Assembly (NCBI GenBank): GCA_021496925.1
Contig: CP053915.1
Coordinates: forward strand, 2,537,260 to 2,601,259
Direction: 5' to 3'
From: Acidovorax sp. YS12
GTDB taxonomy: Bacteria; Pseudomonadota; Gammaproteobacteria; Burkholderiales; Burkholderiaceae_C
Length of the DNA stretch: 64,000 bases
Position numbers and translations under genes: made by a program. Within the stretch, counting starts at the first letter, position 1. Each line of letters starts with the position of its first letter. Below are positions 6,942 to 50,882 of the stretch, piece by piece. The notes beneath the pieces are model-generated. The model worked only from the letters and a program-made list of their open reading frames with translations. It had not been told where the DNA came from and made no database searches.

Positions 6942-9034
6942 ACACCTCTCTGACCGCATTGCGCCAGTGGACCAGCAGCAACGGTGCCATGGTCCAGGGC
7001 CTGTCCGCCCCGCTGCTCGTGGTGGCCATCCTGGCACTCATGGTGCTGCCCATCCCGGCCTGGCTGCTCGATACCTTCTTCACCCTCAACATCGCCGTGG
7101 CGCTGATGGTGATGATGGTGGCCGCGTACATGATCCGGCCGCTGGATTTCGCCGCCTTCCCCTCGGTGCTGCTGCTGACTACGCTGATGCGCCTGTCGCT
7201 CAACGTCGCCTCCACCCGCGTGGTGCTGCTGGAAGGCCACACCGGCCCGGGCGCGGCCGGCGCGGTGATCGAGGCCTTCGGCCACTTCCTGATCGGCGGC
7301 AACTTCGCGGTCGGCCTGATCGTGTTCGCCATCCTCGTGGTCATCAACTTCGTCGTGGTGACCAAGGGCGCCGAGCGTATCGCCGAAGTGTCGGCGCGCT
7401 TCACCCTGGACGCCATGCCCGGCAAGCAGATGGCGGTGGACGCCGACCTCAACGCCGGCCTCATCAACGAGGACGAAGCCAAGCGCCGCCGCGCCGAGGT
7501 GCAGGAAGAAGCCGCCTTCTTCGGCTCCATGGACGGCGCCAGCAAGTTCGTGCGCGGCGACGCCGTTGCCGGCATCCTGATCCTGCTCATCAACATCGTC
7601 GGCGGCTTCGCCATCGGCATGGCGCAGCACGGCCTGTCAGCCAGCGAAGCCGCCAACAGCTACATCCTGCTGGCGGTCGGCGACGCGCTGGTGGCGCAGA
7701 TCCCCGGCCTGCTGATCTCCGTGGCTGCCGCCATGGTGATCTCGCGCGTGGGCAAGGAGCAGGACATGGGCGGCCAGATCGTGCGCCAGCTCTTCATGTC
7801 GCCGCGCGTGCTGGGCGTCACGGCCGGCATCCTGGTCCTGCTGGGCCTGATCCCCGGCATGCCGCACGTGGTGTTTCTCGCCATGGGCAGCCTGTTCGGC
7901 TACGGCGCCTGGCTGCTGGTACAGCGTGAGAAGCAGGCCGCAGCCACGGCCGCAGCCGCGACCGAAGCCCCTCCCGCCCCGGCGAGCGACGGCGAAGCCA
8001 GCTGGGACGATCTGCAGCCCATCGACCTGCTGGGCCTGGAGCTGGGCTACCGCCTGATCGCGCTGGTGGACAAGAGCCGCCAAGGCGACCTGCTCACGCG
8101 CATCAAGGGCGTGCGGCGCAAGTTCGCGCAGGAGGTGGGCTTCCTGCCGCCCGCCGTGCACGTGCGCGACAACCTCGAACTCAAGCCCAGCGCGTACCGC
8201 ATCACGCTGCGCGGCGTGGTCGTGGGCGAGGGCGAGGCCTTCCCCGGCATGTTCCTGGCCATCAACCCCGGCGGCATCAGCACGCCGCTGATCGGCACGC
8301 CCACCACCGACCCGGCGTTCGGCCTGCCCGCGCACTGGATCGACGGCGCGCAGCGCGAAGCGGCGCAAATGGCCGGTTTCACGGTCGTTGATTCCGAGAC
8401 CGTGATGGCCACCCATTTGTCACACTTGATGCAAGTGCACGCCGCCAAGCTCCTGTCGCGCACCGAGACGCAGCAACTCGTGGAGCACGTGGCAAGGCTG
8501 GCACCCAAGCTCATCGAAGAGGTGGTACCGAAGATGGTCTCGATCACGACCTTCCAGAAGGTGCTGCAGCTTCTGCTGGAGGAATCCGTGCATATCCGCG
8601 ACATCCGCACCATCATCGAAACACTGGCCGAGCACGCCACCGCCACGCAGGATCCGGTGGAGCTGGCGCGCCGCGTGCGCATCGCGCTGTCGCCCGCCAT
8701 CGTCCAGCAGATCTACGGGCCCACGCGCGAACTCAGCGTGATCGCCATCGAGCCCGGCTTGGAGCGCCTGCTGGTGCAAGCCCTGGGCAATGCCGCCAAC
8801 GGCCCCTCGCTCGACCCTGGCGTGGCCGACATGCTCACGCAAAAAGCTGCCGAAGTCGCCCTGCACCAGGAGGAAATGGGCATGCCCGCCTGCCTGCTCG
8901 TGCCCGACGCCATCCGGGGCGCCATTTCCCGCCTGGTGCGCCGCGTCGCGCCCCGGCTGCAGGTACTCGCGCACAGCGAGATCCCTGAAACCCACACCAT
9001 CCGCATCGGCCCGATTCTCAAAGGTGCAGCATGA
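6938..9034 (+). CDS. flhA: Flagellar export apparatus protein FlhA
   Basis: 698 aa; FHIPEP family; start overlaps flhB stop (ATGA). Confidence 0.92.
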   Translation: MNTSLTALRQWTSSNGAMVQGLSAPLLVVAILALMVLPIPAWLLDTFFTLNIAVALMVMMVAAYMIRPLDFAAFPSVLLLTTLMRLSLNVASTRVVLLEGHTGPGAAGAVIEAFGHFLIGGNFAVGLIVFAILVVINFVVVTKGAERIAEVSARFTLDAMPGKQMAVDADLNAGLINEDEAKRRRAEVQEEAAFFGSMDGASKFVRGDAVAGILILLINIVGGFAIGMAQHGLSASEAANSYILLAVGDALVAQIPGLLISVAAAMVISRVGKEQDMGGQIVRQLFMSPRVLGVTAGILVLLGLIPGMPHVVFLAMGSLFGYGAWLLVQREKQAAATAAAATEAPPAPASDGEASWDDLQPIDLLGLELGYRLIALVDKSRQGDLLTRIKGVRRKFAQEVGFLPPAVHVRDNLELKPSAYRITLRGVVVGEGEAFPGMFLAINPGGISTPLIGTPTTDPAFGLPAHWIDGAQREAAQMAGFTVVDSETVMATHLSHLMQVHAAKLLSRTETQQLVEHVARLAPKLIEEVVPKMVSITTFQKVLQLLLEESVHIRDIRTIIETLAEHATATQDPVELARRVRIALSPAIVQQIYGPTRELSVIAIEPGLERLLVQALGNAANGPSLDPGVADMLTQKAAEVALHQEEMGMPACLLVPDAIRGAISRLVRRVAPRLQVLAHSEIPETHTIRIGPILKGAA

Positions 9035-10659
9035 ACATCAAACGCTTCCACGCCGCCACCTCGCGTGAGGCCCTGGCCAAGGCCCGCATGGCCTTCGGCG
9101 ACGGCACCTTGATCCTGTCCAACCGCGCCACCGCCAACGGCGTGGAGGTCGTGGCCACCGCCGAGGACACGCTGCACGCGCTCGACCAGGACAGCGCCCC
9201 CTCCGCACGGCCCGCGCTGCAGTCCATGCAGCCCAGCGAAGAACCGCGCCGCGCCGCGCCCGCGCCGAGCGCGCGGCCCGCCCCCGCGCCCACCCCTGCG
9301 CCCGCGCGCCGCAGCGTCGAGGCCGACACCGAACAGCTGGCCATGAGCACCCTGTCGTTCCAGGACTACGTACGCGAACGCATGCTGCGCCGCCGCCACG
9401 AGGCCATGCACGGCGCCCCCCCGGCCGCGAAGGCCGAGCCCGCCATGCCGGAACGCCTGCCCACCTTCGCCGAGCGCGCGCGCGACTCCCAGCCCGAACA
9501 CACGCGCGGCTTCACGCCCGAGCCGCAGCCGCGTGCGCGCGAGTTCGCGCCCGAGCGCCCGAGCGCGCGCGAGCCCGAATTCATCGCCCGCGAGCCCCAG
9601 CGAGCCCCAGCGCCCGTGCATGAACCGCGCCCCGCGCCCGCCGCGCCGGTGGTGGCGCGCCACAATCCGCTGCGCAGCATTCCGATGGACCTGCCCGAGG
9701 AGCCGCGCCGCCGCGCCGAGCCCGCCATCAGCCAGCAAGGGCTGATGAACGAGCTGCAGGCCATGAAGGAGCTGATCGAGGACCGCTTCAACACCCTGTC
9801 CTGGCTGGGCCAGGCGCGGCAGGACCCGATCCAGTCGAACCTGATGCTCAAGCTGATCCGCGCGGGCTACTCCCCGGCGCTGTCGCGCGCCATCCTGGAG
9901 CGCCTGCCTGAAGACCTTTCCGCCGCCGACGCCGTGCGCTGGCTCATGGAAGTGCTGGAGCGCAACCTCAAGACCGACGCACGCATGGAGCCGCTGTACG
10001 AGGAAGGCGGCATCTTCGCCCTGGTCGGCGCCACGGGCGTGGGCAAGACCACCACCACGGCCAAGCTCGCCGCGATGTGCGCGCGCCAGTACGGCCCGGG
10101 CAGCGTCGGCCTGATCACGCTCGACACCTACCGCGTGGGCGCGCACGAGCAGTTGCGCAGCTTCGGTCGCATGCTCGGCGTGGTGGCCCACCTGGCGCAC
10201 GACCGCGCCGCGCTGCAGGACCTGCTGGGCCTGCTGGTGGGCAAGAAGATGGTGCTGATCGACACCACCGGCGTGGCCCCGCGCGACCCGCGCAAGCGCG
10301 AGATGGAAGAAGTGCTCGACCTGCCCGGCGTGCAGCGCCTGCTGGTGCTGAACGCCGGCTGCCACGGCGATACGCTGGACGACGTGCTCGACGCCTTCAA
10401 GACCAGCGGCGCGCCGCAGCAAGCCATCCTCTCGAAAATCGACGAGGCCGTGAAGCTTGGCCCCGCCATGGACGCGCTGATCCGCCACCAGACGCTGCTG
10501 CGCGGCGTGACCAACGGCCAGCGCGTGCCCGAAGACTGGGAAGCCGCCAACGCGCACCAGCTCATCCAGCAGTCCATGCGCGCGCCGGCCAAGTCGGCGT
10601 TCGACCCCAAGGCCATGGAACTGAACTTCTTCTTCTCGCCCGGGCCGCAGCATGCTTGA
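9031..10659 (+). CDS. flhF: Flagellar SRP-type GTPase FlhF with long Pro/Ala-rich N-terminal linker
   Basis: P-loop 'GATGVGKTTTTAKLAA', 'DTYRVGA', 'LIDTTG'. Residues ~50-230 are low complexity and include a 10-nt tandem duplication. Confidence 0.85.
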   Translation: MNIKRFHAATSREALAKARMAFGDGTLILSNRATANGVEVVATAEDTLHALDQDSAPSARPALQSMQPSEEPRRAAPAPSARPAPAPTPAPARRSVEADTEQLAMSTLSFQDYVRERMLRRRHEAMHGAPPAAKAEPAMPERLPTFAERARDSQPEHTRGFTPEPQPRAREFAPERPSAREPEFIAREPQRAPAPVHEPRPAPAAPVVARHNPLRSIPMDLPEEPRRRAEPAISQQGLMNELQAMKELIEDRFNTLSWLGQARQDPIQSNLMLKLIRAGYSPALSRAILERLPEDLSAADAVRWLMEVLERNLKTDARMEPLYEEGGIFALVGATGVGKTTTTAKLAAMCARQYGPGSVGLITLDTYRVGAHEQLRSFGRMLGVVAHLAHDRAALQDLLGLLVGKKMVLIDTTGVAPRDPRKREMEEVLDLPGVQRLLVLNAGCHGDTLDDVLDAFKTSGAPQQAILSKIDEAVKLGPAMDALIRHQTLLRGVTNGQRVPEDWEAANAHQLIQQSMRAPAKSAFDPKAMELNFFFSPGPQHA

Positions 10660-11425
10660 ACGCGGCATGCACCAGGGCATGGGCCTGCTGCACCGCGCCC
10701 CGGCCGAGGCACTGCGCTTCGCCGCCGTCGGCAGCGCGCCGGATGCGCTCGGCCTGCAGGTGCTGTGGCAGCTGTGCGAACAGTTGCAGCGCCTGGGCTA
10801 CCCGACCATCGTGCTCGATGGCTGCGCCGTGGAAAGCCCGCACGCCCCCGGCCTGGAACAACTGCTGGAGCAGGACGGCTGGAGCGCCCCCCCCAGCCCC
10901 CTGCACGGCGACAGCGCCTGCGTAGCCGTGCTGCCCGCTGCCCGCGGCCTGTTGCGCCTGCCGGACGCCGCACCCCTAGCGCCGCTGCACCCCTTGTTCC
11001 GCGCCTACGCACTGGTGCTGCTGCACGCCCCCGTGCACCAGCTGGCGCAGCTGCTGCCGCACGCCAGCGTGCCGCTGATCCTGACCGCGCCCGGCACCAC
11101 GGGCACACAGCAGGCCTACCGCCACATCAAGCAGCTGGCGGTGCAGGCCGGCCTGGGCAGCCAGGTGTGCGCCCTGGTGCGCGGCGACGGCCCGGCGCAG
11201 CAGCGCCAGGCGCGCACGCAGATCGCCACGCTGCAGCGCTGCGCGGCCGACTACCTCGGCTTGGCGCAGCAGGGGCTGGTGGTGGACGCGGATAATCCCC
11301 AGGATCTGCAGCGCATGGCCTTGCAACTGCTGGAGAACGCGGGCACCATCGACGAAACGGTGGCCATGCCGCCGCTGTATGCCAGTCTTGCACCGGCCAC
11401 CGCACCCTTCGTCCGGAGCCACTGA
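10652..11425 (+). CDS. flhG: FlhG/FleN (MinD-family) homolog lacking the Walker A P-loop (degenerate)
   Basis: Sits at the flhG position. Alignable to FleN ('LILTAPGTTGTQQAYRHIKQL' vs 'LLVVCDEPTSITDAYALIKLL'), but the P-loop GGKGGVGKT is replaced by 'VGSAPDALGL'. Confidence 0.6.
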   Translation: MLERGMHQGMGLLHRAPAEALRFAAVGSAPDALGLQVLWQLCEQLQRLGYPTIVLDGCAVESPHAPGLEQLLEQDGWSAPPSPLHGDSACVAVLPAARGLLRLPDAAPLAPLHPLFRAYALVLLHAPVHQLAQLLPHASVPLILTAPGTTGTQQAYRHIKQLAVQAGLGSQVCALVRGDGPAQQRQARTQIATLQRCAADYLGLAQQGLVVDADNPQDLQRMALQLLENAGTIDETVAMPPLYASLAPATAPFVRSH

Positions 11426-11428
11426 CTC

Positions 11429-12145
11429 GTGATGTACACCGCCAAAGGCCAGCTCGACCGCGATGCCCTGCTGCGCCAGCATGTACCGCTGGTGCGGCGC
11501 ATTGCGCACCACATGATCGCCAAGCTGCCGCCCAACGTGGAGCTCGACGATCTGATCCAGGTCGGCATGATCGGCCTGGCCGAGGCGCTGTCGCGCTACG
11601 AGGCGGCGCAGGGCGTGCAGTTCGAAACCTTCGCCACCCAGCGCATCCGCGGCGCCATGCTCGACGAGCTGCGCGACAGCGACTGGATGAGCCGCAGCTC
11701 GCGCAAGAGCCAGAAGGACATCGAGCAGGCGCTGCACCGCGTCGAGCAGCGGCTCGGGCGCAGCCCGCTGGAATCCGAGATCGCCGCCGAGCTGGGCATG
11801 AGCCTGGAGGACTACCAGAGCCTGCTGGGCAAGGTGCGCGGCACCCAGCTTGTCTACCTCGAAGACATGCACCATGACGATGGCGACGAGGGCTTTCTCG
11901 ACCGCCACGTGGCCGACGCAGGCGCCGACCCGCTGGCTATGCTGCGCGACCAGCGCCTGCGCGACGCGCTGGTGCGTGCCATCCAGGCCCTGCCCGAGCG
12001 CGAGCAGCACATCATGGGCATGTACTACGAGCACGACATGAACCTGAAAGAGATCGCCGCCGTGCTCGGCGTGACCGAATCGCGCGTGTGCCAGCTGCAC
12101 AGCCAGGCCGTCGCCCGCCTGCGCACCAAGATGCGGGCGCATTGA
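11429..12145 (+). CDS. fliA: Flagellar sigma factor sigma-28 (FliA)
   Basis: 238 aa; sigma-70 regions 2 and 4 ('ELDDLIQVGMIGLAEA', 'LKEIAAVLGVTESRVCQLH'). Confidence 0.9.
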   Translation: MMYTAKGQLDRDALLRQHVPLVRRIAHHMIAKLPPNVELDDLIQVGMIGLAEALSRYEAAQGVQFETFATQRIRGAMLDELRDSDWMSRSSRKSQKDIEQALHRVEQRLGRSPLESEIAAELGMSLEDYQSLLGKVRGTQLVYLEDMHHDDGDEGFLDRHVADAGADPLAMLRDQRLRDALVRAIQALPEREQHIMGMYYEHDMNLKEIAAVLGVTESRVCQLHSQAVARLRTKMRAH

Positions 12146-12369: not shown

Positions 12370-12717
12370 TCAGCCGGCTGCGCGGTAGATGCGCGCGGCG
12401 CTGCCCTTGGGGCTGCCGTAGGTGGAAGGCTCGACCGGGGGCAGTACGGTGGCGGCCTGGCGGTCGGCCAGCGCGGCCACGCGCGCCAACTGGTCGCGCA
12501 CCAGGGCCAGGCGCGTGCCCAGGGCCTGGATGCGCTGCACGCTCGCGGCGTCGATGGCCTGCGTGCCCTGGCGCTGGACCAGCTGTGCCAGCGCGGCGGC
12601 GGCGTCACGCAGCAAGCCGCTGCACTGCTCCAGCTTCACGGGGTCGGCCGCCAGCAGGGCGTCGGAAGCGGCCTGTACTTTTTCTTCGGCACCGGCGAGG
12701 ATGGCTTGCAAGGTCAT
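12370..12717 (-). CDS. flgN: FlgN-family flagellar chaperone (putative)
   Basis: 115-aa helical protein immediately downstream of flgM; the assignment rests on position only. Confidence 0.55.
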   Translation of the reverse strand: MTLQAILAGAEEKVQAASDALLAADPVKLEQCSGLLRDAAAALAQLVQRQGTQAIDAASVQRIQALGTRLALVRDQLARVAALADRQAATVLPPVEPSTYGSPKGSAARIYRAAG

Positions 12718-28782: not shown

Positions 28783-29895
28783 CTATTTGGATATACCGCC
28801 GGGCGGCTGAAGCGCGGGCGGTGTGCAAGGGCGCACCAGCACCTGCATGGCACGCTCCACGGGCGATATCTCCACGCGCACCGGCAGGCACCGTGCAATG
28901 GTCTGCGCATTCGTCTCCGCATGGGGCGTGACCGCGCTGCAGGTGTAGCGCGCGGCCTGCCCGCTGCGCCACACCGCCAGGGCCAGCGGCAGCATCCACT
29001 GGTCGGCCAGGTGCGGGCCCAGGGCCCCCTGGCTGCGCCAGTAGGCGCGCACGTCGTCGCAGAGGCGGCGCGCCACCTGCTCGGACGACAGGCTGCGCTC
29101 GCCCAGCTGGCAGAACACCTCGGTCACGTGGGCGTGCGCCAGGATGGCCAGCAGGGCATTGCCCGGGCCTTCGTTCTGCCGCGCCACGGGCTGGCGCAGC
29201 TGGCCGGCCTCGAACGTCCAGCCCATGCGCTGGCCCAGCGCCTGCAGCTCGCGCGCGGCCACGCCTTTGGCGATACCCGGCGCCAGCACCTCGCCCCAGG
29301 CGCTCGCCAGCGGGCCGCGCTCCAGCAGGTCGAACGGCGCCAGCGGCTGCGCTGCAGGCGTGATGCGCGCCACCACCTCCCCGCCCCCGGCGGGAAAGAA
29401 GCCGCGGCGCTGCAACTGCAGGTCCAGCCCCGCGCCCAGGCGCCGCACCAGCGGTGCGAAGGCACGGTCGAGAAAGTCGAACGGCGGTGCCATGGGGTTG
29501 TGGGTGCCGCCGGCCAACTGCACTTCGCTCGCGCCATCGGCCAGCAGCAGCGCCGGCAGCACGGTCTGCAGCACCAGCATGCAGCTGCCGGCCGTGGCGA
29601 CCTGGAAGCGGTAGCGGCCCGCCCGCACCAAGCCCGGCGTGAACTGCAGCGCCTGCGCGCCCAGCGCCGCGCCTTCGGCCCGGCCATGGCACACCGCCTC
29701 GGCGGCCTGCACGCAGGCCAGATGCTGGCGCATCAGCCCCGGCTTGGGCCGCCCGGCACGAATGCGCGTGATGTGCAGCGGCTGCCCGGTGGCCAGCGAA
29801 AGGGCCAGGCCCGTGCGCAGGATCTGGCCGCCGCCTTCACCGGCGGCGCCATCAAGGGTGATGGGCGGCTGTTCTCCTGGTTCTTTGTTATGCAT
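28783..29895 (-). CDS. rtcA: RNA 3'-terminal phosphate cyclase RtcA
   Basis: Colinear with E. coli RtcA ('LDGAAGEGGGQILRTGLALS', catalytic His-containing 'RQHLACV', 'ATAGSCMLVLQTVLPAL'). Confidence 0.9.
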   Translation of the reverse strand: MHNKEPGEQPPITLDGAAGEGGGQILRTGLALSLATGQPLHITRIRAGRPKPGLMRQHLACVQAAEAVCHGRAEGAALGAQALQFTPGLVRAGRYRFQVATAGSCMLVLQTVLPALLLADGASEVQLAGGTHNPMAPPFDFLDRAFAPLVRRLGAGLDLQLQRRGFFPAGGGEVVARITPAAQPLAPFDLLERGPLASAWGEVLAPGIAKGVAARELQALGQRMGWTFEAGQLRQPVARQNEGPGNALLAILAHAHVTEVFCQLGERSLSSEQVARRLCDDVRAYWRSQGALGPHLADQWMLPLALAVWRSGQAARYTCSAVTPHAETNAQTIARCLPVRVEISPVERAMQVLVRPCTPPALQPPGGISK

Positions 29896-29896
29896 A

Positions 29897-29947
29897 AAAA
29901 GTGCCTCCAGCGCTTGTCCATGAAGCGCTGACAGCTATCAAAATGGT
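29897..29947. repeat. REP-like palindromic element inside the rtcB-rtcA intergenic spacer
   Basis: CCAGCGCTTG-TCCATG-AAGCGCTG-ACAGCTATCAAAA; family member. Confidence 0.55.
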
Positions 29948-29967
29948 AGTTATCCAGGCACGGGGCA

Positions 29968-31188
29968 TCACCCCTTCACGCACACCACCTGCTTGAGCGT
30001 GTAGACCACTTCCACCAGGTCCTGCTGCGCGGCCATGACGGCGTCGATGTCCTTGTAGGCCATCGGAATCTCGTCGATCACGTCGGCATCCTTGCGGCAT
30101 TCCACGCCCTCGGTGGCGGCGATCTGGTCGGCCACGGTGAACAGCTTCTTGGCCTTGGTGCGGCTCATGGCGCGGCCCGCGCCGTGGCTGCAGCTGTTGA
30201 AGCTCTCGGGGTGGCCCTTGCCGCGCACGATGAAGCTCTTGGCACCCATGCTGCCGGGAATGATGCCCAGCTGGCCCTGCGCGGCGCTCACCGCGCCCTT
30301 GCGGGTCACGAACACCTCCTGCCCGAAATGCGTCTCGCGCTGCACGTAGTTGTGGTGGCAGTTCACCGCTTCCACGTGTGTCTCGAACGGCTTGGCGACA
30401 CACAAGCGCAGAGCGTTGATGACGCGCGTCATCATCACCTCGCGGTTGGCGGCGGCGAACTTCTGCGCCCAGCCCACGGCCTTGACGTAGTCGCCGAAGT
30501 AGCGCGCGCCTTCCTCGAAGTAGGCCAGGTCCTTGTCGGGCAGGTTGCGCTGGTGCAATTCCGCGTCCTTCTTCGCCAGTTCGATGAAGTGCGTGCCGAT
30601 GGCGTTGCCCACGCCGCGCGAGCCGGAGTGCAGCATGATCCACACGGCCTGGTGCTCATCCAGGCACACCTCGATGAAGTGGTTGCCGGTGCCCAGCGTG
30701 CCCAGGTGCTTGTAGTTGTTGGTGTTCTTGATGCGCGGATGCGCTTCGCAGATTTCCTCGAACTCCTGCACCAGCGCGGCCCAGGCGTGGTCGGTTTCGG
30801 CGGGCGGGGTTTCCCAGCTTCCCTTGTCGCGGCCATAGCGCTTGGGCGTCAGGCCCACGGGCACGGCGCGCTCGATGACGGCGCGCACGCCCGAGAGGTT
30901 GTCGGGCAGGTCGCTGGCGGTGAGCGTGGTCTTGCAGGCCATCATTCCGCAGCCCAGATCCACGCCGACCGCCGCCGGGATGATGGCCTTCAGCGTGGGC
31001 ACGACGGAGCCGATGGTGGCGCCGATGCCCAGGTGTACGTCGGGCATCACCGCCACGTGCTTGAAAACGATGGGCAGGCGGGCGATGTTGTGCAGTTGCT
31101 TGCGTGCGTCTTCCTCCACGGGCACGCCGTGGGTCCACATCTTGACGGGGACGCCGCTGGGGACTTCGTATTGCTGGTAGTTGGTCAT
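29968..31188 (-). CDS. rtcB: RNA-splicing ligase RtcB
   Basis: 407 aa from internal ATG (MTNYQQYEV...) with RBS; >50% identical-looking to E. coli RtcB across the full length ('HNYV', 'CSHGAGR', 'VKG' C-terminus). Confidence 0.92.
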   Translation of the reverse strand: MTNYQQYEVPSGVPVKMWTHGVPVEEDARKQLHNIARLPIVFKHVAVMPDVHLGIGATIGSVVPTLKAIIPAAVGVDLGCGMMACKTTLTASDLPDNLSGVRAVIERAVPVGLTPKRYGRDKGSWETPPAETDHAWAALVQEFEEICEAHPRIKNTNNYKHLGTLGTGNHFIEVCLDEHQAVWIMLHSGSRGVGNAIGTHFIELAKKDAELHQRNLPDKDLAYFEEGARYFGDYVKAVGWAQKFAAANREVMMTRVINALRLCVAKPFETHVEAVNCHHNYVQRETHFGQEVFVTRKGAVSAAQGQLGIIPGSMGAKSFIVRGKGHPESFNSCSHGAGRAMSRTKAKKLFTVADQIAATEGVECRKDADVIDEIPMAYKDIDAVMAAQQDLVEVVYTLKQVVCVKG

Positions 31189-31211
31189 TTTTGTTTCCTG
31201 TCTCTCGTTGC

Positions 31212-31409
31212 TCATGCAGCCGCCATGACATCGAAGGCGGCGGCGATGCGGTCGGTCAGCGGGTGGTATGTTTTGCCGCATTTGCGGCAGGCGGGGCGCC
31301 AATCGCAGGGGATTCCTTTATCGATCAGCTTCAACAGCTTGTCCGCCCATGCGGCTTTGGCTTGCGGATCGGTCACCGCAGCGTTCAATGGCGTGTCTTT
31401 CTTTTTCAT
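31212..31409 (-). CDS. Small (65 aa) Cys-rich, putative zinc-ribbon protein co-oriented 23 nt upstream of rtcB
   Basis: 'CDWRPACRKCGKTYH' (C-x5-C-x2-C-x4-H). Lys-rich N-terminus. Tight spacing between the SPFH gene and rtcB. Confidence 0.4.
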   Translation of the reverse strand: MKKKDTPLNAAVTDPQAKAAWADKLLKLIDKGIPCDWRPACRKCGKTYHPLTDRIAAAFDVMAAA

Positions 31410-31427
31410 TGTTGTTTCCTCTTTCTT

Positions 31428-32573
31428 TCAACGCATCTTCACGAGGCCGTTCAGCACCTGGTCCAGCCCGCCAAAGACGGAGATCTTGTCGATGCGCTCG
31501 GCCACGCGCTCCAGCGTTTCCAGTTCCTTCATGCGCAGGGCGACGGGGTTGTCCTCCATCACCTTGGCGGTGTTGAGCAGCGAGCGCGTGGCGGCGGTTT
31601 CCTCGCGGCGGCGGATCACGTTGGCCTGGGCCTGCTTCTCGGCCTGCACCACCTGGGCCAGGATGGCCTTCATGTCCCCGGGCAGCACGATGTCCTTCAC
31701 GCCCACGCTTTCCAGTTGCAGGCCGTAGGGCTGCAGCTTGGCGGCCATGTGCGCGGTCACGACGTCGTCGATCACCGTCTTGTTCTCCAGCAGCTCGTCC
31801 AGCGTGCGCGTACCCACGGCCGCGCGCAGCGCAAATTGCAGTTCGCGGTACAGGTGCTCCACGGGCTTTTGCAACTGACCGAAGGCGCGCAGCACGTCGG
31901 TGTAGCGCCAGGTGGCGCTCAGGTTCAGGCGCAGGGCCACCTTGTCGCGGGTCATGATGTCCTGGCCCGAGACTTCGACGGCCTGCAGGCGCAGGTCCAC
32001 CAGCTCCACGGCGATGACACGGCCGTATTTCCAGAAGGCATAGCTGCCAGCGGCCAGCAGGCGGTCCACCTTGCCGTCGATGGCGAGCAGCGCGCACTGG
32101 CCGTCGGGCACCTGCACTTGCAGCACGCCGTTCAGGCCCGCCACGGGGCGCTGGCGCAGTTGGGTTTGCGCCAGGCGCGCGGTCAGGCCGGCGGGCAGCT
32201 CGGCACTGGCGCGCAGGTCGATGACCTGCACGGCCACATCGACCAGACCCTTCCAATACAGGCGGCGGGTGCCGGGCGGCAGGATTTCGACCAGCACGCC
32301 GTTCTCGCTGCGCAGGCCCGCTTCGTGTTCGGCCAGGTTCACGGCGATGAACTCGGCGGCCACCACGGCAGGCTCGCGCGCCATCAGGTATTCGGCCAGG
32401 CCGTGGGTGAAGGCGGGCTGCTCCAGCGCGAAGGTCTCCACGCGCAATTTGTCGAGGCCCGCGAACAGCCAGTGCGTGCCGCTGTGCAGAACCCGGTCGA
32501 AATCGCCGTTGCGAAGCAGCAAGGCGCGTTCGTTCTTCTTGACGGTGATGCGTTGGAGGGTGTTGTTCAGCAT
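31428..32573 (-). CDS. SPFH/band-7 (stomatin/flotillin-like) family protein, apparently soluble
   Basis: C-terminal half is classic SPFH ('QDIMTRDKVALRLN...VGVKDIVLPGDMKAILAQVVQAEKQAQANVIRRREE'). N-terminus is also SPFH-like. No obvious TM segment. Confidence 0.75.
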   Translation of the reverse strand: MLNNTLQRITVKKNERALLLRNGDFDRVLHSGTHWLFAGLDKLRVETFALEQPAFTHGLAEYLMAREPAVVAAEFIAVNLAEHEAGLRSENGVLVEILPPGTRRLYWKGLVDVAVQVIDLRASAELPAGLTARLAQTQLRQRPVAGLNGVLQVQVPDGQCALLAIDGKVDRLLAAGSYAFWKYGRVIAVELVDLRLQAVEVSGQDIMTRDKVALRLNLSATWRYTDVLRAFGQLQKPVEHLYRELQFALRAAVGTRTLDELLENKTVIDDVVTAHMAAKLQPYGLQLESVGVKDIVLPGDMKAILAQVVQAEKQAQANVIRRREETAATRSLLNTAKVMEDNPVALRMKELETLERVAERIDKISVFGGLDQVLNGLVKMR

Positions 32574-32803
32574 TTTTCTCTTCCTTCTTCTCTGTCGTCA
32601 CAGGGTGCCGTTACAGCGGCGGCGGGGAGCCAGGGGACGCGGCCTCGGGCCGTGCAGTGCGCCGGGGTGTGGCTGGCTGCGGGCGCGGGCTGCGCCGGGT
32701 GCTGGCGCAAACCGCCGCCGGCTGACGGGGTGCAGGCTTGGGCTTGCGCCTTGGCCCGTGCCCCGCGTTCGGCGGTTCTTTCAACAACCGGCCTTGCGGC
32801 CGG

Positions 32804-32877
32804 ATCAATGGACGGGATTCGAACCCGCGACAGATCTCTTATGAGGAGATTGCTCTACCAAACTGAGCTACCAGTGG
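32804..32877 (-). tRNA. tRNA-Met(CAT)-like element with two acceptor-stem mismatches (pseudo-tRNA or tRNA-mimic ncRNA)
   Basis: Minus strand reads CCACTGG-TA-GCTC-AGTTTGGTA-GAGC-A-ATCTC-CTCATAA-GAGAT-CTGTC-GCGGG-TTCGAAT-CCCGT-CCATTGA-T. D, anticodon and T arms are perfect; 1-72 and 4-69 are unpaired; no encoded CCA. A GC hairpin (CCGGCCGCAAGGCCGG) follows. Confidence 0.5.
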
Positions 32878-32935
32878 CGGCACGCCTGGAGTCGAACCAG
32901 ACACGCCCTTGCGGGTTGGTCACCACGACCGTGCC
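32875..32935 (-). ncRNA. tRNA-like minihelix (acceptor stem plus T-arm plus CCA, no D/anticodon arms), fused head-to-tail to the tRNA-Met-like element
   Basis: GGCACGG...TCTGG-TTCGACT-CCAGG-CGTGCC-G-CCA. The encoded CCA overlaps the 5' end of the downstream tRNA-like element. Confidence 0.35.
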
Positions 32936-33074
32936 AGTACCCGGCGCTTGCGGCGTGCGGCATGCAGGGAATCGACAAGGCGCGAAGGCCCCGGACTCCC
33001 GGCACCGGCAGGGCGGACATGCGTCCAAACCCTGGCCTGTGAGCGTTCGGCGCTTGCGTCGGGTACCTTGTCTA

Positions 33075-33091
33075 TTGCCAGATGCGTGCCA
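33075..33091 (-). promoter_or_regulatory. Candidate sigma-54 promoter (TGGCACG-N4-TGGCA) reading toward the tRNA-like leader, SPFH, rtcB and rtcA
   Basis: Minus strand TGGCACGCATCTGGCA; -24 GG and -12 GC are correctly spaced. RtcR is a sigma-54 activator. Confidence 0.45.
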
Positions 33092-33211
33092 GCCTGGGTG
33101 GAATTGCGCTAACCATTTGCCACCAAAGGGGAAAACCGGATTCATCGGTCATCGGTGCGATTGCTGATTGCCAGTATTGCTAGACTGTTGGCTAGTTATC
33201 TAGCTGAAAAC

Positions 33212-34834
33212 ATGCACAAGAAAAAAGTGGTCATCGGCTTCCTCGGCACGCAGCTCGACTCGGGCCGGGGCGCGGGCCGCTGGCAAAAGTGGCGGCCTAC
33301 CGTCTCGCTGGTGCAGCACCCGGACATGGTGATCGACCGGCTGGAACTGCTCTACACAACCCCGCACAAGGATCTGGCCGCGCTGGTGCGCGCCGACATC
33401 GCCACCACCTCGCCCGAGACTTCGGTCAACCTCGTGGAGATGCCCACCGCCGATCCGTGGGACTTCGGCGAGGTCTATGCGCGCCTGTTCGACTGGGCGC
33501 AGGCCTACCGCTTCGACCCGGAGCGCGAGGACTACTGGACGCACATCACCACCGGAACGCACGTGGCGCAGATCTGCCTGTTCCTGCTGGTCGAGTCGCG
33601 CCGCATTCCGGGGGTGCTGGTGCAAACCTCTCCCCCGAAGCGCCAGCGCAGCGGCGCGCCGGGCACCTACACGCTGATCGACCTGGACCTGTCGCGCTAC
33701 GACGTGATCGCCCAGCGCTTCGGCGCCGAGCAGCGCGACGCGGTGCAGTTCCTCAAGAGCGGCATCGCCACGCGCAACGCGCGCTTCAACGCGCTGATCG
33801 ACGAGGTGGAGCGCGTGGCAGTGCGCTCGCGCGCGCCCATCCTGTTCACCGGGCCCACGGGCGCGGGCAAATCGCACCTGGCGCGGCGCATGTACGCGTT
33901 GAAGAAGGCGCGCCACCAGGTGCAAGGCCCGTTCGTCGAAGTGAACTGCGCCACCTTGCGCGGCGATGGCGCGGCCTCCACCCTGTTCGGCCACAAGAAG
34001 GGCGCCTTCACCGGCGCGGCCGCAGACCGGCCGGGCCTGCTGCGCGCCGCGCACCAGGGCGTGCTGTTTCTCGACGAAATCGGCGAGCTGGGCCTGGACG
34101 AGCAGGCCATGCTGCTCAAGGCCGTGGAGGAAAAGCGCTTCTACCCCCTGGGCAGCGACCGGGAGGTGGAAAGCGACTTCCAGCTGGTGGCCGGCACCAA
34201 CCGCGACCTGCGGGCCGAGGTGGCGGCGGGGCGCTTCCGCGAAGACCTGTTCGCGCGCATCAACCTCTGGAGCTACGTGCTGCCCGGCCTGGCGCAGCGG
34301 CCCGAAGACATCGCCCCCAACGTGGACCACCTGCTGGCGCAGGCGGGCCATGCGCTGGGCCGCGGCGTGCGCTTTTCCAGCGAGGCACGGGCGGCGTACC
34401 TGCGCTACGCCCAGTCGCCCGAGGCGCCGTGGGCGGGCAACTTCCGCGACCTGTCGGCCAGCGTGACGCGCCTGGCCACGCTGGCGGACAACGGGCGCAT
34501 CGGCCTGCCCTTGGTGGACGCGGAGCTGCAGCGGCTGCGCTGGCAATGGGAGCGGCTCGGGAACGCGCCGGCAATGGACGCGCAGGCCGGCGGCGTCGAT
34601 CTGGCGGCCTTGCTGGGCGGCGAGGCACTGCAGTCCATCGACCTGTTCGACCAATTGCAGTTGCGCGCGGTGCTGCAGGTGTGCCAGCGCGCGCGCACCC
34701 TGTCGGAAGCGGGGCGGATGCTGTTCCAGGCCTCGCGCGGGCAGCGCAGCGTGGTCAACGATGCCGACCGGCTGCGCAAATACCTGGCACGGTTCGGGCT
34801 GACGTGGGACCGGGTGCGCGAAGCTCTGGGATAA
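33212..34834 (+). CDS. rtcR: Sigma-54-dependent transcriptional activator RtcR (N-terminal CARF domain, AAA+ domain, HTH)
   Basis: N-terminus 'KKVVIGFLGTQLD' resembles E. coli RtcR. Walker A 'GPTGAGKS'; sigma54-interaction motif present. Confidence 0.9.
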   Translation: MHKKKVVIGFLGTQLDSGRGAGRWQKWRPTVSLVQHPDMVIDRLELLYTTPHKDLAALVRADIATTSPETSVNLVEMPTADPWDFGEVYARLFDWAQAYRFDPEREDYWTHITTGTHVAQICLFLLVESRRIPGVLVQTSPPKRQRSGAPGTYTLIDLDLSRYDVIAQRFGAEQRDAVQFLKSGIATRNARFNALIDEVERVAVRSRAPILFTGPTGAGKSHLARRMYALKKARHQVQGPFVEVNCATLRGDGAASTLFGHKKGAFTGAAADRPGLLRAAHQGVLFLDEIGELGLDEQAMLLKAVEEKRFYPLGSDREVESDFQLVAGTNRDLRAEVAAGRFREDLFARINLWSYVLPGLAQRPEDIAPNVDHLLAQAGHALGRGVRFSSEARAAYLRYAQSPEAPWAGNFRDLSASVTRLATLADNGRIGLPLVDAELQRLRWQWERLGNAPAMDAQAGGVDLAALLGGEALQSIDLFDQLQLRAVLQVCQRARTLSEAGRMLFQASRGQRSVVNDADRLRKYLARFGLTWDRVREALG

Positions 34835-47804: not shown

Positions 47805-48347
47805 ATGTCCCCCACACCTCCCGCCGGGCCGCAAGACGACGCGCCCCGCCCTGACGAGCCGCGTTCGCTGCGCCTGGAAGACTGGCTCACCGTCATCGTG
47901 ATGGCGCTGCTGGCGCTGATCACCTTCGCCAACGTGATCGTGCGCTACTTCACCGACACCTCGTTCGCCTGGACCGAGGAGATTTCGGTGTTCCTGATGA
48001 TCGTGCTCGCGCTCGTCGCCGGCTCGGCCGCCGTGGCGCGCGACGTGCACATCCGCATCGAATGGTTCGCCGAGGGCGGCTCCGCGCGCCGCCGCCAGGC
48101 GCTGGCGCGCTTCGGCGCGCTCATGGTGGCGCTGCTGTTCGGCGTGATCGCCGTGCTCAGCGTGCGCGTGGTGTGGGACGACTTCCGCTTCGAGGAGACC
48201 TCGCCCGGCATCGGCGTGCCGCAGTGGTGGTACTCGGTGTGGCTGCCCGTGTTCTCGGCGCTCATCGCCTGGCGCGCCATCGGCCTGTTCATCCGCCGCG
48301 GCCGCCAGGCGCCGCCGGAAAACCACCACGGGGACTTCCAGGCATGA
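47805..48347 (+). CDS. dctQ: TRAP transporter small permease
   Basis: 180 aa, 4 TM; stop overlaps dctM start (ATGA). Confidence 0.8.
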   Translation: MSPTPPAGPQDDAPRPDEPRSLRLEDWLTVIVMALLALITFANVIVRYFTDTSFAWTEEISVFLMIVLALVAGSAAVARDVHIRIEWFAEGGSARRRQALARFGALMVALLFGVIAVLSVRVVWDDFRFEETSPGIGVPQWWYSVWLPVFSALIAWRAIGLFIRRGRQAPPENHHGDFQA

Positions 48348-49642
48348 TCGCCACCCTGCTGTTCGTGGCTTTCCTGGCCATGATGTTCGTGGGCGTGCCC
48401 ATCGGCGCGGCCCTGGGGCTGGCGGGCGCGGCCTGCATCGCGCTGGCCAACGCCGATGCGCAGTGGTTCGGCCTGCTGGCCGTGCCGCAGAACTTTTACG
48501 CCGGGCTGGGCAAGTACCCGCTGCTGGCCATCCCGATGTTCGTGCTCGTGGGCTCGATCTTCGACCGCTCGGGCGTGGCACTGCGGCTGGTGAACTTCGC
48601 CGTGTCCATCGTCGGGCGCGGCCCCGGCATGCTGCCGCTGGTGGCCATCACCGTGGCCATGTTCCTGGGCGGCATCTCGGGCTCGGGCCCGGCCAACGCG
48701 GCCGCCGTGGGCGGCGTGATGATCGCTGCCATGAGCCGCGCCGGCTACCCCGGCAGCTTCTCGGCCAGCGTGGTGGGCGCGGCGGCGGCCACCGACATCC
48801 TGATCCCGCCCTCGGTGGCGTTCATCATCTACTCGGTGCTGGTGCCCGGCGCCTCGGTGCCCGCGCTGTTCGCGGCCGGCATGGTGCCGGGCGTGCTCGC
48901 GGGCATCGCGCTGATCGTGCCCGCCGTGTGGATGGCGCGCCGGCACAAGATGGGCGCGCTGGAGGCCGACATGCCGCGCCCGCCGTTCTGGCAGAGCCTC
49001 AAGGAAGCCCTGTGGGGCCTGGCCGCGCCGGTGCTGATCCTGGGCGGCATGCGCGCGGGCTGGTTCACGCCCACCGAGGCCGCCGTGGTGGCAGTGTTCT
49101 ACGGCCTGTTCGTGGGCATGGCGGTCCACCGCACGATCAAGGTGCGCGACCTCTTCCCCATCCTGCGCGAGGCGGGCGAGCTGTCGGCCGTGATCCTCAT
49201 CGTGGTCTCGCTCGCGGGCATCTTCGCGTTCTCGCTGTCCACGCTGGGCGTGATCGACCCGGTGGCGAATGCCATCGTGCACTCGGGCCTGGGCGAATAC
49301 GGCGTGCTGGCGCTCTTGATTCTGCTGCTCATCACCGTGGGCATGTTCCTCGACGGCATCTCGATCTTCCTGATCTTCGTGCCGCTGCTGCTGCCCATCA
49401 TGCAGCACTACGGCTGGGACCCGGTGTGGTTCGGCGTGATCCTCACGCTGAAGGTGGCGCTGGGCCAGTTCACGCCGCCGCTGGCCGTGAACCTGATGGT
49501 GTCGTGCCGCATCGCCGGCGTGCGCATGGAGTCCACCGTGCGCTGGGTCGGCCCGATGCTGCTGGCCATGTTCCTGGTCATGGTGGCCGTGATCGCCTTC
49601 CCGCAACTCGCCCTGTGGCTGCCGGCCAAGCTGGGCTACTGA
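48344..49642 (+). CDS. dctM: TRAP transporter large permease
   Basis: 432 aa polytopic DctM family. Confidence 0.9.
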   Translation: MIATLLFVAFLAMMFVGVPIGAALGLAGAACIALANADAQWFGLLAVPQNFYAGLGKYPLLAIPMFVLVGSIFDRSGVALRLVNFAVSIVGRGPGMLPLVAITVAMFLGGISGSGPANAAAVGGVMIAAMSRAGYPGSFSASVVGAAAATDILIPPSVAFIIYSVLVPGASVPALFAAGMVPGVLAGIALIVPAVWMARRHKMGALEADMPRPPFWQSLKEALWGLAAPVLILGGMRAGWFTPTEAAVVAVFYGLFVGMAVHRTIKVRDLFPILREAGELSAVILIVVSLAGIFAFSLSTLGVIDPVANAIVHSGLGEYGVLALLILLLITVGMFLDGISIFLIFVPLLLPIMQHYGWDPVWFGVILTLKVALGQFTPPLAVNLMVSCRIAGVRMESTVRWVGPMLLAMFLVMVAVIAFPQLALWLPAKLGY

Positions 49643-49664
49643 TTTTTCCCAAGGAGACTGTCTG

Positions 49665-50696
49665 ATGAAACTGCGTACCTTCCTCGCCTCGGCCGTAGCC
49701 GCCGCCGCGGCACTCGCCTTCGCCACGCCCGCGCTGGCGCAGAACTACAAGAGCGAATACCGCATGTCGCTGGTGCTCGGCACGGCCTTCCCCTGGGGCA
49801 AGGGCGGCGAGATCTGGGCCGCCAAGGTCAAGGAAAAGACCCAGGGCCGCATCAACATCAAGCTCTACCCCGGCGTGTCGCTGATCCAGGGCGACCAGAC
49901 GCGCGAATTCAGCGCGCTGCGCCAGGGCGTGATCGACATGGCCGTGGGCTCGACCATCAACTGGTCGCCCCAGGTCAAGCAGCTCAACCTGTTCTCGCTG
50001 CCCTTCCTGTTCCCCGACTACGCCGCCGTGGACGCGGTGACGCAGGGCGAGGTCGGCAAGAGCCTCTTCGCCACGCTGGAGAAGGCCGGCGTGGTGCCGC
50101 TGGCCTGGGGCGAGAACGGCTACCGCGAGATCAGCAACTCCAAGCACGCCATCAAGAGCCCGGCCGACCTCAAGGGCCTGAAGATCCGCGTGGTGGGCTC
50201 GCCGCTGTTCCTCGACACCTTCACCGCCCTGGGCGCCAACCCCACGCAGATGAGCTGGGCCGACGCCCAGCCCGCCATGGCCAGCGGCGCCGTGGACGGC
50301 CAGGAGAACCCCATCTCGGTGTACCAGGCCGCCAAGCTGCACACCGTGGCGCAGAAGCACATCACCATGTGGGGCTACATGAACGACCCGCTGGTCTTCG
50401 TGGTGAACAAGGACATCTGGAACAGCTGGACGCCCGCCGACCGCGAGGCCGTGCGCCAGGCCGCCATCGAGGCCGGTAAGGAAGAAATCGCCATCGCGCG
50501 CAAGGGCATGGTCGAGGAAGGCAAGCCGCTGCTCAAGGAAATCGCCGCCCACGGCGTGACCATCACCCAGCTCAGCCCCGCCGAGCGCGAAGCCTTCGTC
50601 AAGGCCACGCGCCCGGTGCACGACAAGTGGAAGAACCAGATCGGCGCCGACCTGGTGCAGGCGGCCGAAAAGGCCATCGCCGCGCGCAAGCCGTAA
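49665..50696 (+). CDS. dctP: TRAP transporter substrate-binding protein
   Basis: Signal peptide plus DctP family (343 aa). Confidence 0.88.
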   Translation: MKLRTFLASAVAAAAALAFATPALAQNYKSEYRMSLVLGTAFPWGKGGEIWAAKVKEKTQGRINIKLYPGVSLIQGDQTREFSALRQGVIDMAVGSTINWSPQVKQLNLFSLPFLFPDYAAVDAVTQGEVGKSLFATLEKAGVVPLAWGENGYREISNSKHAIKSPADLKGLKIRVVGSPLFLDTFTALGANPTQMSWADAQPAMASGAVDGQENPISVYQAAKLHTVAQKHITMWGYMNDPLVFVVNKDIWNSWTPADREAVRQAAIEAGKEEIAIARKGMVEEGKPLLKEIAAHGVTITQLSPAEREAFVKATRPVHDKWKNQIGADLVQAAEKAIAARKP

Positions 50697-50757: not shown

Positions 50758-50882
50758 AAACTATTGGGCCCAGCGGCGCCCCTGCGCGCGCCGTGCCACG
50801 CGCGTAACTCCCACCCTGGCGGCCGGATGATCTGGGATAAATTGCCTGCGAGAACGTGTTCACGGGCTCTTCGAGGAGGGGC

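Follow-up and report, generated by a model that had tools for sequence, protein, structure and literature searches.

The gene considered here occupies the flhG position of a flagellar gene block in Acidovorax sp. YS12, within a stretch of 64,000 nucleotides (contig CP053915.1, positions 2,537,260 to 2,601,259) that is hereafter called the window and in which positions are numbered from 1. FlhG, also known as FleN or YlxH, is a MinD-type ATPase that sets flagellar number, and current reviews describe FlhF and FlhG as a conserved GTPase plus ATPase switch, with ATP-dependent dimerisation and membrane binding being central to flagellar number (PMC12826062). The original prediction, made from the DNA letters of the window alone, was of an FlhG homolog that has no P-loop (Walker A motif) and is paired with an intact FlhF. 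The block runs motAB-cheYZ-flhB-flhA-flhF-ORF-fliA, followed by a possible flgN, flgM and flgA on the opposite strand and then by flgB to flgJ, where ORF denotes the open reading frame of interest. Around it lie the following features:

9031-10659, + strand: flhF, encoding a complete signal recognition particle (SRP)-type GTPase, the presumed partner (Pfam SRP54 and NCBIfam TIGR03499, both above cut-off)
10652-10659, + strand: 8-nt overlap ATGCTTGA, holding the ATG of the ORF and the stop codon of flhF
10652-11425, + strand: the ORF, 257 amino acids (aa), a P-loop-less ortholog of FlhG, very probably a pseudo-ATPase
11429-12145, + strand: fliA (sigma-28), which lies downstream and completes the order flhF-flhG-fliA (NCBIfam FliA, 299 bits against a cut-off of 201)

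The order of the whole flagellar block is identical in Alicycliphilus denitrificans, the order flhF-X-fliA is kept in Alicycliphilus, Ralstonia and Burkholderia glumae, and a position downstream of flhF is seen in 76 further loci. In 53 of the 76 betaproteobacterial loci, P-loop-bearing and P-loop-less alike, the gene starts at an offset of -7 (the same 8-nt start/stop overlap with flhF), so that the translation of flhF and the ORF is probably coupled. As predicted, the FlhF of the window is intact: it scores 253 bits against TIGR03499 (cut-off 174), matches the solved FlhF 8r9r with an E-value of 3e-44, and aligns with it across G1 (GATGVGKTT), G2 (DTYR), G3 (DTTG) and G4 (SKIDE).

The ORF is a real gene under purifying selection, neither an artefact nor a pseudogene. 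Its in-frame GC content at third codon positions (GC3) is 0.90, in a window of 68.8% GC; 25 residues are invariant across an alignment of 40 diverse family members; and the ratio of non-synonymous to synonymous substitution rates (dN/dS) measured against a homolog of 94% identity in an assembly of a public read set is 0.072 (61 synonymous and 15 non-synonymous differences), a value that rules out the pseudogene reading. The absence of a P-loop also withstands the check for a frameshift or an alternative start, both of which were ruled out by translating all frames between 10500 and 11500, where no other frame or start restores the motif. The MinD-type deviant Walker A pattern KGGxGK[ST] is found in none of the six frames of the window, and matches to the looser GxxxxGK[ST] are confined to FlhF, RtcR, two ABC-type ATPases and one spurious ORF of 42 aa.

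It had been claimed that the protein still aligns to FleN and MinD, and this stood only in part. Neither Pfam nor NCBIfam gave a single match, even at E ≤ 10, and comparison of PDB sequences with the protein (phmmer) and with its 40-sequence profile (hmmsearch) produced no MinD-like match; the best direct matches, to a phage portal protein (E 0.011) and a corrinoid protein (E 1.5), were judged to be due to chance. Homologs of the protein form 149 clusters at 90% identity, the named ones all from Comamonadaceae (Acidovorax, Paracidovorax, Alicycliphilus and Melaminivora), and of these every one is annotated as 'hypothetical protein' and is without a Pfam domain. When 1.84 billion representatives were searched exhaustively with the family profile, the family size came to 403 cluster representatives at E ≤ 1e-3, or 233 at E ≤ 1e-10, and the clusters of the ten most divergent members hold metagenome proteins only. 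One record titled 'Pantoea sp. 18069' (L009, NZ_CACSJA010000036.1) carries a P-loop-less family member together with a Comamonadaceae-type flhF whose product is 62% identical to that of the window and, in the FlhF tree, sits beside Acidovorax bellezanensis; the likely cause is a wrong label or contamination.

The part of the claim that stood is the relationship to FlhG itself, which emerges from profile-profile comparison through intermediates and from the fold. Using hhalign, the family aligned to 22 P-loop-shaped betaproteobacterial FlhGs with a probability of 97.9% (E 4.9e-13) over 215 columns, co-linear from the N-terminal motif onwards, and to the Sphaerotilaceae form with 98.2% (E 6e-14, 220 columns), while the Sphaerotilaceae form aligned to the P-loop-shaped FlhGs with 99.1% (E 6e-19, 203 columns). 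Alignments of intermediates were required, the comparison of the family with a single Ralstonia sequence being non-significant. The reference set is anchored by the FlhG of Nitrosomonas, which matches Pseudomonas aeruginosa FleN (5j1j) with an E-value of 2.4e-47 over its full length, including the membrane-targeting helix, and Geobacillus FlhG with 5.6e-24; on these alignments it consists of bona fide FlhG. A structure model, used at the level of secondary structure (DSSP) and of the predicted local distance difference test (pLDDT), retains the MinD-like SIMIBI fold with high confidence. The protein also has two short elements in common with P-loop-bearing FlhGs, a VLPAARG turn and an AY...K helix after switch II:

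10931-10948, + strand: LPAARG strand-turn (residues 94-99), VLPAARG corresponding to VLPAARA or ILPAARA in Propionivibrio, Dechloromonas and Gallionella and to IVPAASG in FleN
11102-11131, + strand: helix GTQQAYRHIK (residues 151-160), the counterpart of the FlhG helix S-I-T-D-A-Y-A-L-I-K after switch II

The AY...K pattern is kept in all groups, with Y156 invariant and K160 nearly invariant in the 40-member alignment. Since five independent lines, namely synteny, the N-terminal motif, profile-profile homology, the shared short motifs and the fold, all agree, the ORF is very probably the positional and evolutionary ortholog of FlhG/FleN, now a pseudo-ATPase. Its identification as MinD can be set aside: MinD has no N-terminal enhancer helix or other N-terminal extension, lies beside minC and minE, is an active ATPase with a Walker A motif and carries a membrane-targeting sequence (MTS), and none of this is true of the window protein, which stands in a flagellar context and has an N-terminal Gln motif.

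The motifs that make up the nucleotide switch were located by extracting alignment columns (MAFFT) against Nitrosomonas FlhG and FleN, with the following outcome:

10727-10756, + strand: former Walker A, VGSAPDALGL (residues 26-35), aligned to SGKKGIGKT in Nitrosomonas and GGKGGVGKT in FleN
10808-10828, + strand: former switch I, IVLDGCA (residues 53-59), with D56 kept and Cys58 at the position of the catalytic second Asp
11009-11029, + strand: former Walker B strand, ALVLLHA (residues 120-126), aligned to DVVLVDTAMG, with the Asp replaced by His125
11297-11347, + strand: family-specific C-terminal helix PQDLQRMALQLLENAGT (residues 216-232), also given as PQDLQRLALQLLENAGT and QDLQRLALQLLE
11414-11422, + strand: the extreme C-terminus, R-S-H, in place of the amphipathic MTS and preceded by a disordered linker

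The deviant Walker A (x-K-G-G-x-G-K-[ST]) has neither its signature lysine nor its P-loop lysine, and the original prediction was right in placing VGSAPDALGL at its columns in a shortened, 257-aa product at the flhG position. In the model, a strand at residues 22-27 and a helix at residues 32-47 are joined by a loop of four residues, SAPD. Two of 265 family members (P0122 and P0202) have GGKT or SGKT at residues 31-34, exactly at the GKT site of Walker A and before helix 1, either as a relic or by coincidence. For switch I, LLDADLG of FleN pairs with LIDENPC of Nitrosomonas, a match that the MAFFT columns carry over to the window protein, so that L-L-D-A-D stands against V-L-D-G-C; the catalytic residue, the second Asp of DxD, is D60 in Vibrio and Ala in the cryo-EM FleN sequences, and the window has D56-G-C58. 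The switch-I loop is remodelled yet constrained, because D56, E61, P66, G67 and L68 are invariant in the family. The Walker B Asp and the adenine-contacting Asn are gone as well (ALVLLHA and VCALVRG, against DVVLVD and LVN[KR]V in the references).

At the C-terminus, no amphipathic helix of the hExFhQQLh type is present (IEHFMQRLI and LEFFVERLV in the references). The family has its own helix there, in which Q220, A223, L224 and E228 are invariant and residues 216-228 are modelled at high pLDDT; the pattern QD[LIV]QRLALQLLE recurs across the family and has no counterpart in canonical FlhG. Beyond it the model is disordered and the protein ends in RSH. Family C-termini have His as the last residue in 200 of 240 cases, SH in 166 and RSH in 115, and the ending could be a docking or degradation signal.

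The original statement that the switch regions and the C-terminal helix are kept must therefore be withdrawn, the catalytic switch-I and Walker B residues being gone and the amphipathic helix replaced by the family-specific helix and RSH tail. Judged from the aligned columns, the loss goes beyond the P-loop and takes in all elements of the nucleotide switch and its membrane read-out. Since membrane binding requires the ATP dimer, the joint loss of MTS and ATPase makes sense. With Walker A, the catalytic Asp, Walker B and the MTS all absent, the protein is best filed as an FlhG-derived pseudo-ATPase, outside the ATPase family. The proposed pseudo-ATPase status is thus upheld: descent from FlhG with the loss of every nucleotide-switch motif leaves a protein that cannot be a P-loop ATPase.

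What distinguishes FlhG from MinD is an N-terminal 'enhancer helix' with the motif DQAxxLR, whose Gln is co-catalytic for the FlhF GTPase (PMC12826062), and a remnant of it is present in the window:

10670-10690, + strand: enhancer-helix remnant HQGMGLL (residues 7-13), the counterpart of DQAxxLR, with Q8 and L12 kept

The co-catalytic Gln is thus retained, without the full consensus that includes Asp and Arg. HQGMGLL aligns to the DQAxGLRR of all other betaproteobacterial FlhGs, and Q8 and L12 are invariant in the 40-member alignment. Among family members of at least 200 aa, the pattern [H/N/D]-Q-[G/A]-x-[G/S]-L is found in 233 of 247, with Gln in 233 of 233 and Leu in 232 of 233, those without it being mostly N-terminally truncated fragments. 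The residue before the Gln is His in 157, Asn in 29 and Asp in 27, and the +5 position is mostly His, Arg, Gln or Leu, while divergent members have a literal DQAAGLR, DQGAGLR or DQANGLRR. By these counts, the enhancer-helix Gln is the most conserved of the FlhG elements.

Loss of the P-loop had been attributed to the lineage of the window, which proved too narrow. A scan of genome contigs with a divergent FlhF alignment was used to collect the 80 flhF loci closest to the FlhF of the window, a sample that gives breadth and not unbiased frequencies. They span Comamonadaceae, Sphaerotilaceae, Oxalobacteraceae, Burkholderiaceae, Methylophilaceae, Rhodocyclales, Nitrosomonas, Gallionella and Nitrotoga, and the genes downstream of flhF gave 78 proteins that could be extracted and aligned. 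DQAxGLRR[LMI] is present in essentially all of them whatever the state of the P-loop, and drifts only within the family of the window. In contrast to this, GK[ST] is kept in just four (Nitrosomonas, Propionivibrio and two metagenome-assembled genomes, MAGs). In other Nitrosomonadales- or Rhodocyclales-like forms and in Burkholderia, Paraburkholderia and Caballeronia the lysine is replaced by R, Q, A, T, H, C, S or N and the shape of the loop is kept, and in Oxalobacteraceae, Methylophilaceae, Ralstonia, Limnobacter, Sphaerotilaceae and Comamonadaceae the P-loop is erased. The catalytic switch-I Asp is absent in 77 of the 78, and the one sequence that has it is without a P-loop. The Walker B Asp is found in 44 of 78 (it is absent from the Comamonadaceae, Sphaerotilaceae and Ralstonia forms), the adenine Asn in 24 of 78, and an MTS-like hExFhQQLh helix in 12 of the 21 P-loop-shaped FlhGs and in none of the others. 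Counts of lysine in the P-loop column need care, as 14 of the 18 are from the 'DDKGA' of Oxalobacteraceae, where there is no glycine-rich loop.

Decay is thus graded, from Burkholderia (GGPVGVGCT) through Dechloromonas and Gallionella (GVGR[ST]) to complete erasure. The FlhG of B. glumae has DQAEGLRRL followed by GGPVGVGCTS, in which both lysines are replaced, and the gene between flhF and fliA on the megaplasmid of Ralstonia solanacearum encodes DQADGLRRL but no P-loop (VIAGEEQVDD) and has no Pfam match, even though it is annotated as 'flagellar synthesis regulator FleN', 'flhG' or 'MinD/ParA family protein'. E-values against the NCBIfam MinD model follow the same course: 6e-26 for Nitrosomonas, 1.5e-21 for Dechloromonas, 1.4e-14 for Paraburkholderia, 6.6e-12 for Duganella, 4e-6 for Ralstonia, and no match for Paucibacter or the window. 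The window protein lies at the far end of a smooth gradient of decay. Neighbour joining of the FlhF NG domains places the window beside Alicycliphilus, Simplicispira and Acidovorax; mapped on the resulting tree, erasure of the P-loop takes at least seven changes and loss of GK[ST] at least three, counts that are indicative, the tree being midpoint-rooted and without support values.

Several individual loci of the sample deserve mention. Six Oxalobacteraceae proteins (L032, L044, L046, L055, L057 and L064) keep a Lys in exactly the column of the P-loop Lys (SATPQDDKGA), with acidic residues replacing the glycine-rich loop. Many FlhGs of Rhodocyclales and Gallionella (L029, L051, L068, L082, L085 and L063) have GVGR[ST] for GVGK[ST] and are weakly matched by NCBIfam NF047398 ('KGGVGR-motif variant AAA ATPase'), so the Arg variant may be a recognised one, possibly nucleotide-binding. 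A 'mini-FlhG' of 119-144 aa in Rhodocyclaceae UBA2271 (L048, 5933-6367) has a deletion from P-loop to Walker B, so that DQADGLRRL is followed almost at once by the AY..IK helix and the C-terminal half. The flhG of a MAG labelled Dechloromonas aromatica (L058, 2420-3454) differs from its relatives in long poly-Asn insertions, NNNNNNNNNNNNN, and a tail rich in Asn and Lys, and may come from a mis-binned low-GC contig or represent a low-complexity expansion. In two genomes fliA directly follows flhF and there is no flhG-like gene: an uncultured Comamonadaceae-like MAG nested in Comamonadaceae (L016, 5968-6000, gap of about 24 nt) and Viridibacterium curvum (L081, 6048-6292, gap of about 224 nt). 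To judge by these two, the gene in the flhG slot can evidently disappear entirely from a genome that retains flhF.

The reading we favour, with a probability of roughly 0.6, is that the ORF encodes a nucleotide-free, soluble FlhG that would still stimulate the GTPase of FlhF. The protein would be made in fixed proportion to FlhF by means of the overlapping start and stop codons, and would stay soluble, monomeric and without nucleotide, its MinD-like fold being kept as a scaffold. Gln8, in the flexible N-terminus, would stimulate GTP hydrolysis in the FlhF dimer in the manner of a GTPase-activating protein (GAP), returning FlhF to the inactive monomer and so limiting flagellar initiation. Canonical FlhG dimerises in dependence on ATP, cycles at the membrane and binds partners as an ATP dimer; all of this would be gone, and the new C-terminal helix (PQDLQRLALQLLENAGT) and R-S-H tail would probably supply a lineage-specific interaction or turnover signal instead. 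In Vibrio alginolyticus, FlhG carrying Q9A no longer stimulates the FlhF GTPase, whereas FlhG carrying K31A, a mutation of ATP binding, does so like the wild type (10.1101/2022.03.19.484964). Given the conserved Gln and the activity of K31A, the arm that acts on FlhF has probably been kept and the arm of ATP, dimer and membrane discarded. The original prediction had supposed that antagonism of FlhF was lost with the ATPase; Gln in 233 of 233 sequences, together with the Vibrio mutant, points the other way. The constitutive monomer that the prediction offered as an example is plausible.

Some observations weigh against this interpretation. The motif of the window is degraded to H-Q-G-M-G-L-L, with both the Asp and the Arg of DQAxxLR lost, so that activity on FlhF is not assured, and the N-terminus is modelled at a pLDDT below 50, which is as expected for a flexible helix and uninformative. 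The view of the genome being 64 kb, a second, canonical FlhG may be encoded elsewhere in it. In Vibrio, moreover, with protein levels equalised, flagellar number could be controlled without the motif, and ATP binding was the important arm (10.1101/2022.03.19.484964). This dependence is the reverse of the conservation seen here, and the logic of the circuit may differ.

A possible but distinctly less probable explanation is that the protein descends from FlhG yet no longer acts on FlhF, and has become a scaffold that serves, through its C-terminal helix and RSH tail, as an adaptor for a C-ring protein, FliA or a polar landmark, the N-terminal Gln and Leu being kept for the new role or for stability. 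The strongest family-specific conservation does lie in the C-terminal helix and tail and not at the N-terminus, the Asp and Arg of the motif are lost in the lineage of the window, the switch-I loop is remodelled with invariants of its own (D56, E61 and PGL), and in Vibrio the N-terminal mutations changed mainly the level of FlhG protein (10.1101/2022.03.19.484964). Set against this are the essentially invariant Gln and Leu over 233 sequences and the canonical motif in the older branches of the family; the gene is also still overlapped with flhF at start and stop, and none of the data indicate another partner.

It is improbable that the protein is an accessory regulator beside a canonical, ATP-binding FlhG that is encoded elsewhere and does the classical job. 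MinD is expected in every genome, and P-loop MinD-type proteins are thus to be expected in the cell; it is also true that only 64 kb of the genome is visible. However, within those 64 kb KGGxGK[ST] occurs in no frame, and in 76 betaproteobacterial loci the flhG slot holds a single gene bearing the enhancer motif. The graded series shows decay of the slot gene in place and not duplication, and surveys place FlhG immediately downstream of flhF (PMC7064773).

Still less credible is a cryptic nucleotide-binding protein, in which ATP or another nucleotide would occupy a non-canonical pocket and cycling would be kept. The fold is retained with high model confidence, invariant residues specific to the family surround the former pocket, and K-to-R variants of the P-loop (KGGVGR) form an ATPase subfamily recognised by NCBIfam, so that some intermediates may still bind nucleotide. 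In the window protein, however, all four nucleotide-contacting elements are gone together, the loop between strand 1 and helix 1 is only S-A-P-D, with a Pro and an acidic residue at the phosphate site, and the MTS, the read-out of the ATP dimer, is missing too. A functionless relic on its way to deletion, for which the loss of the gene in two sampled genomes (L016 and L081) and the mini-version in L048 might speak, is effectively refuted by the dN/dS of 0.072, the GC3 of 0.90, the 25 residues invariant in 40 members and the 403 full-length cluster representatives.

Compared with FlhG/FleN/YlxH proteins of known structure (4RZ2, 4RZ3, 5J1J and 8P53), the FlhG of the window lacks Walker A, the catalytic Asp, the Walker B Asp, the Asn and the MTS, is some 30-40 residues shorter, ends in a new C-terminal helix and R-S-H, and is covered by no Pfam or NCBIfam model. 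Its closest laboratory analogues are the engineered K31A and K36Q mutants of V. alginolyticus, which likewise do not bind ATP yet have the enhancer motif, K31A stimulating the FlhF GTPase in vitro (10.1101/2022.03.19.484964). Those mutants lose polar localisation and are hyperflagellated, i.e., their state is one of lost function, whereas the state in the window is fixed and under purifying selection; an equivalent state that is fixed in this way implies a circuit no longer in need of the ATP arm. Its closest natural relatives are those of B. glumae (WP_012734297) and R. solanacearum (APC66906), which have the same locus and enhancer motif without a functional Walker A, and represent intermediate stages of decay. 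These Burkholderia and Ralstonia FlhGs are still detected by MinD/CbiA models (E 2e-6 to 1e-14), and that of Burkholderia still has both the Walker B Asp and the Asn, whereas the family of the window has lost both and is annotated only as 'hypothetical protein'. In B. glumae, flhBAFG-fliA has been described as an FlhDC-dependent operon, with FlhF controlling placement. Searches of the literature for FlhG together with Acidovorax, Burkholderia, Ralstonia, pseudo-ATPase or degenerate Walker motifs returned no prior description, subscription-only papers being outside the search and a mention in an alignment figure being possible; the degenerate P-loops of the proteins from Burkholderia and Ralstonia seem to have escaped comment.

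The polar flagellates sampled (Burkholderia, Ralstonia, Herbaspirillum, Acidovorax and methylotrophs) have FlhGs without the catalytic Asp, usually without the P-loop Lys, and often without the P-loop and membrane helix, but with the Gln motif kept. Should this pattern be functional, at least one major way of counting flagella works without the ATP arm, and nature would have provided separation-of-function variants with which to take up the long-standing question of which functions of FlhG need ATP and which need only the enhancer helix. As a tentative generalisation, which we hold to be somewhat short of even odds, the two-nucleotide switch of FlhF(GTP) and FlhG(ATP) may have been cut to a one-nucleotide switch in much of the Betaproteobacteria, FlhG becoming a nucleotide-free, GAP-like cofactor whose dose is tied to that of FlhF by translational coupling. 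Loss of the catalytic Asp would have come first, already in a common ancestor, after which the P-loop and MTS would have been erased repeatedly and independently, and in Comamonadaceae the new helix and R-S-H tail might replace ATP and membrane cycling for localisation or turnover. For annotation, the large 'hypothetical protein' family of Comamonadaceae, which has no Pfam or NCBIfam model, should be designated as FlhG-derived, and genome surveys should not take an 'FlhG ortholog downstream of flhF' as proof of an intact ATPase switch.

It can be conjectured that decay of the P-loop and ATPase tracks control by FlhDC, with loss of a FleQ partner, FlhDC control being documented only for B. glumae. 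The 64-kb window holds neither FlhDC nor FleQ as a master regulator. A sigma-54 activator at 33155-34834 was considered as FleQ and rejected, as it is RtcR adjoining rtcBA. This gene belongs to an RNA-repair module (28783-34834) that lies 7 kb beyond the flagellar block and comprises, besides the divergent rtcR on the + strand, three genes on the - strand: rtcA (28783-29895), rtcB (29968-31302) and a gene for an SPFH/Band-7 protein (31428-32573).

Of the remaining genes, an ORF of 115 aa on the - strand (12370-12717), between fliA and flgM, has a high GC3 and no Pfam match, and from its position could encode an FlgN-like chaperone; Alicycliphilus has an unannotated gene of 112 aa at this place. 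Directly upstream of motA is a gene for an 833-aa family-2 glycosyltransferase (17-2518, + strand), and at the same place in Alicycliphilus there are genes for a 1669-aa multi-domain glycosyltransferase and a CMP-sugar transferase-like protein, which suggests glycosylation of flagellin. Finally, a 904-aa diguanylate cyclase with CHASE-dCache-HAMP-GGDEF architecture (50856-53570, + strand), which nothing ties to the flagellar block, adjoins a TRAP transporter (48062-50696) and may bear on the control of motility by cyclic di-GMP.

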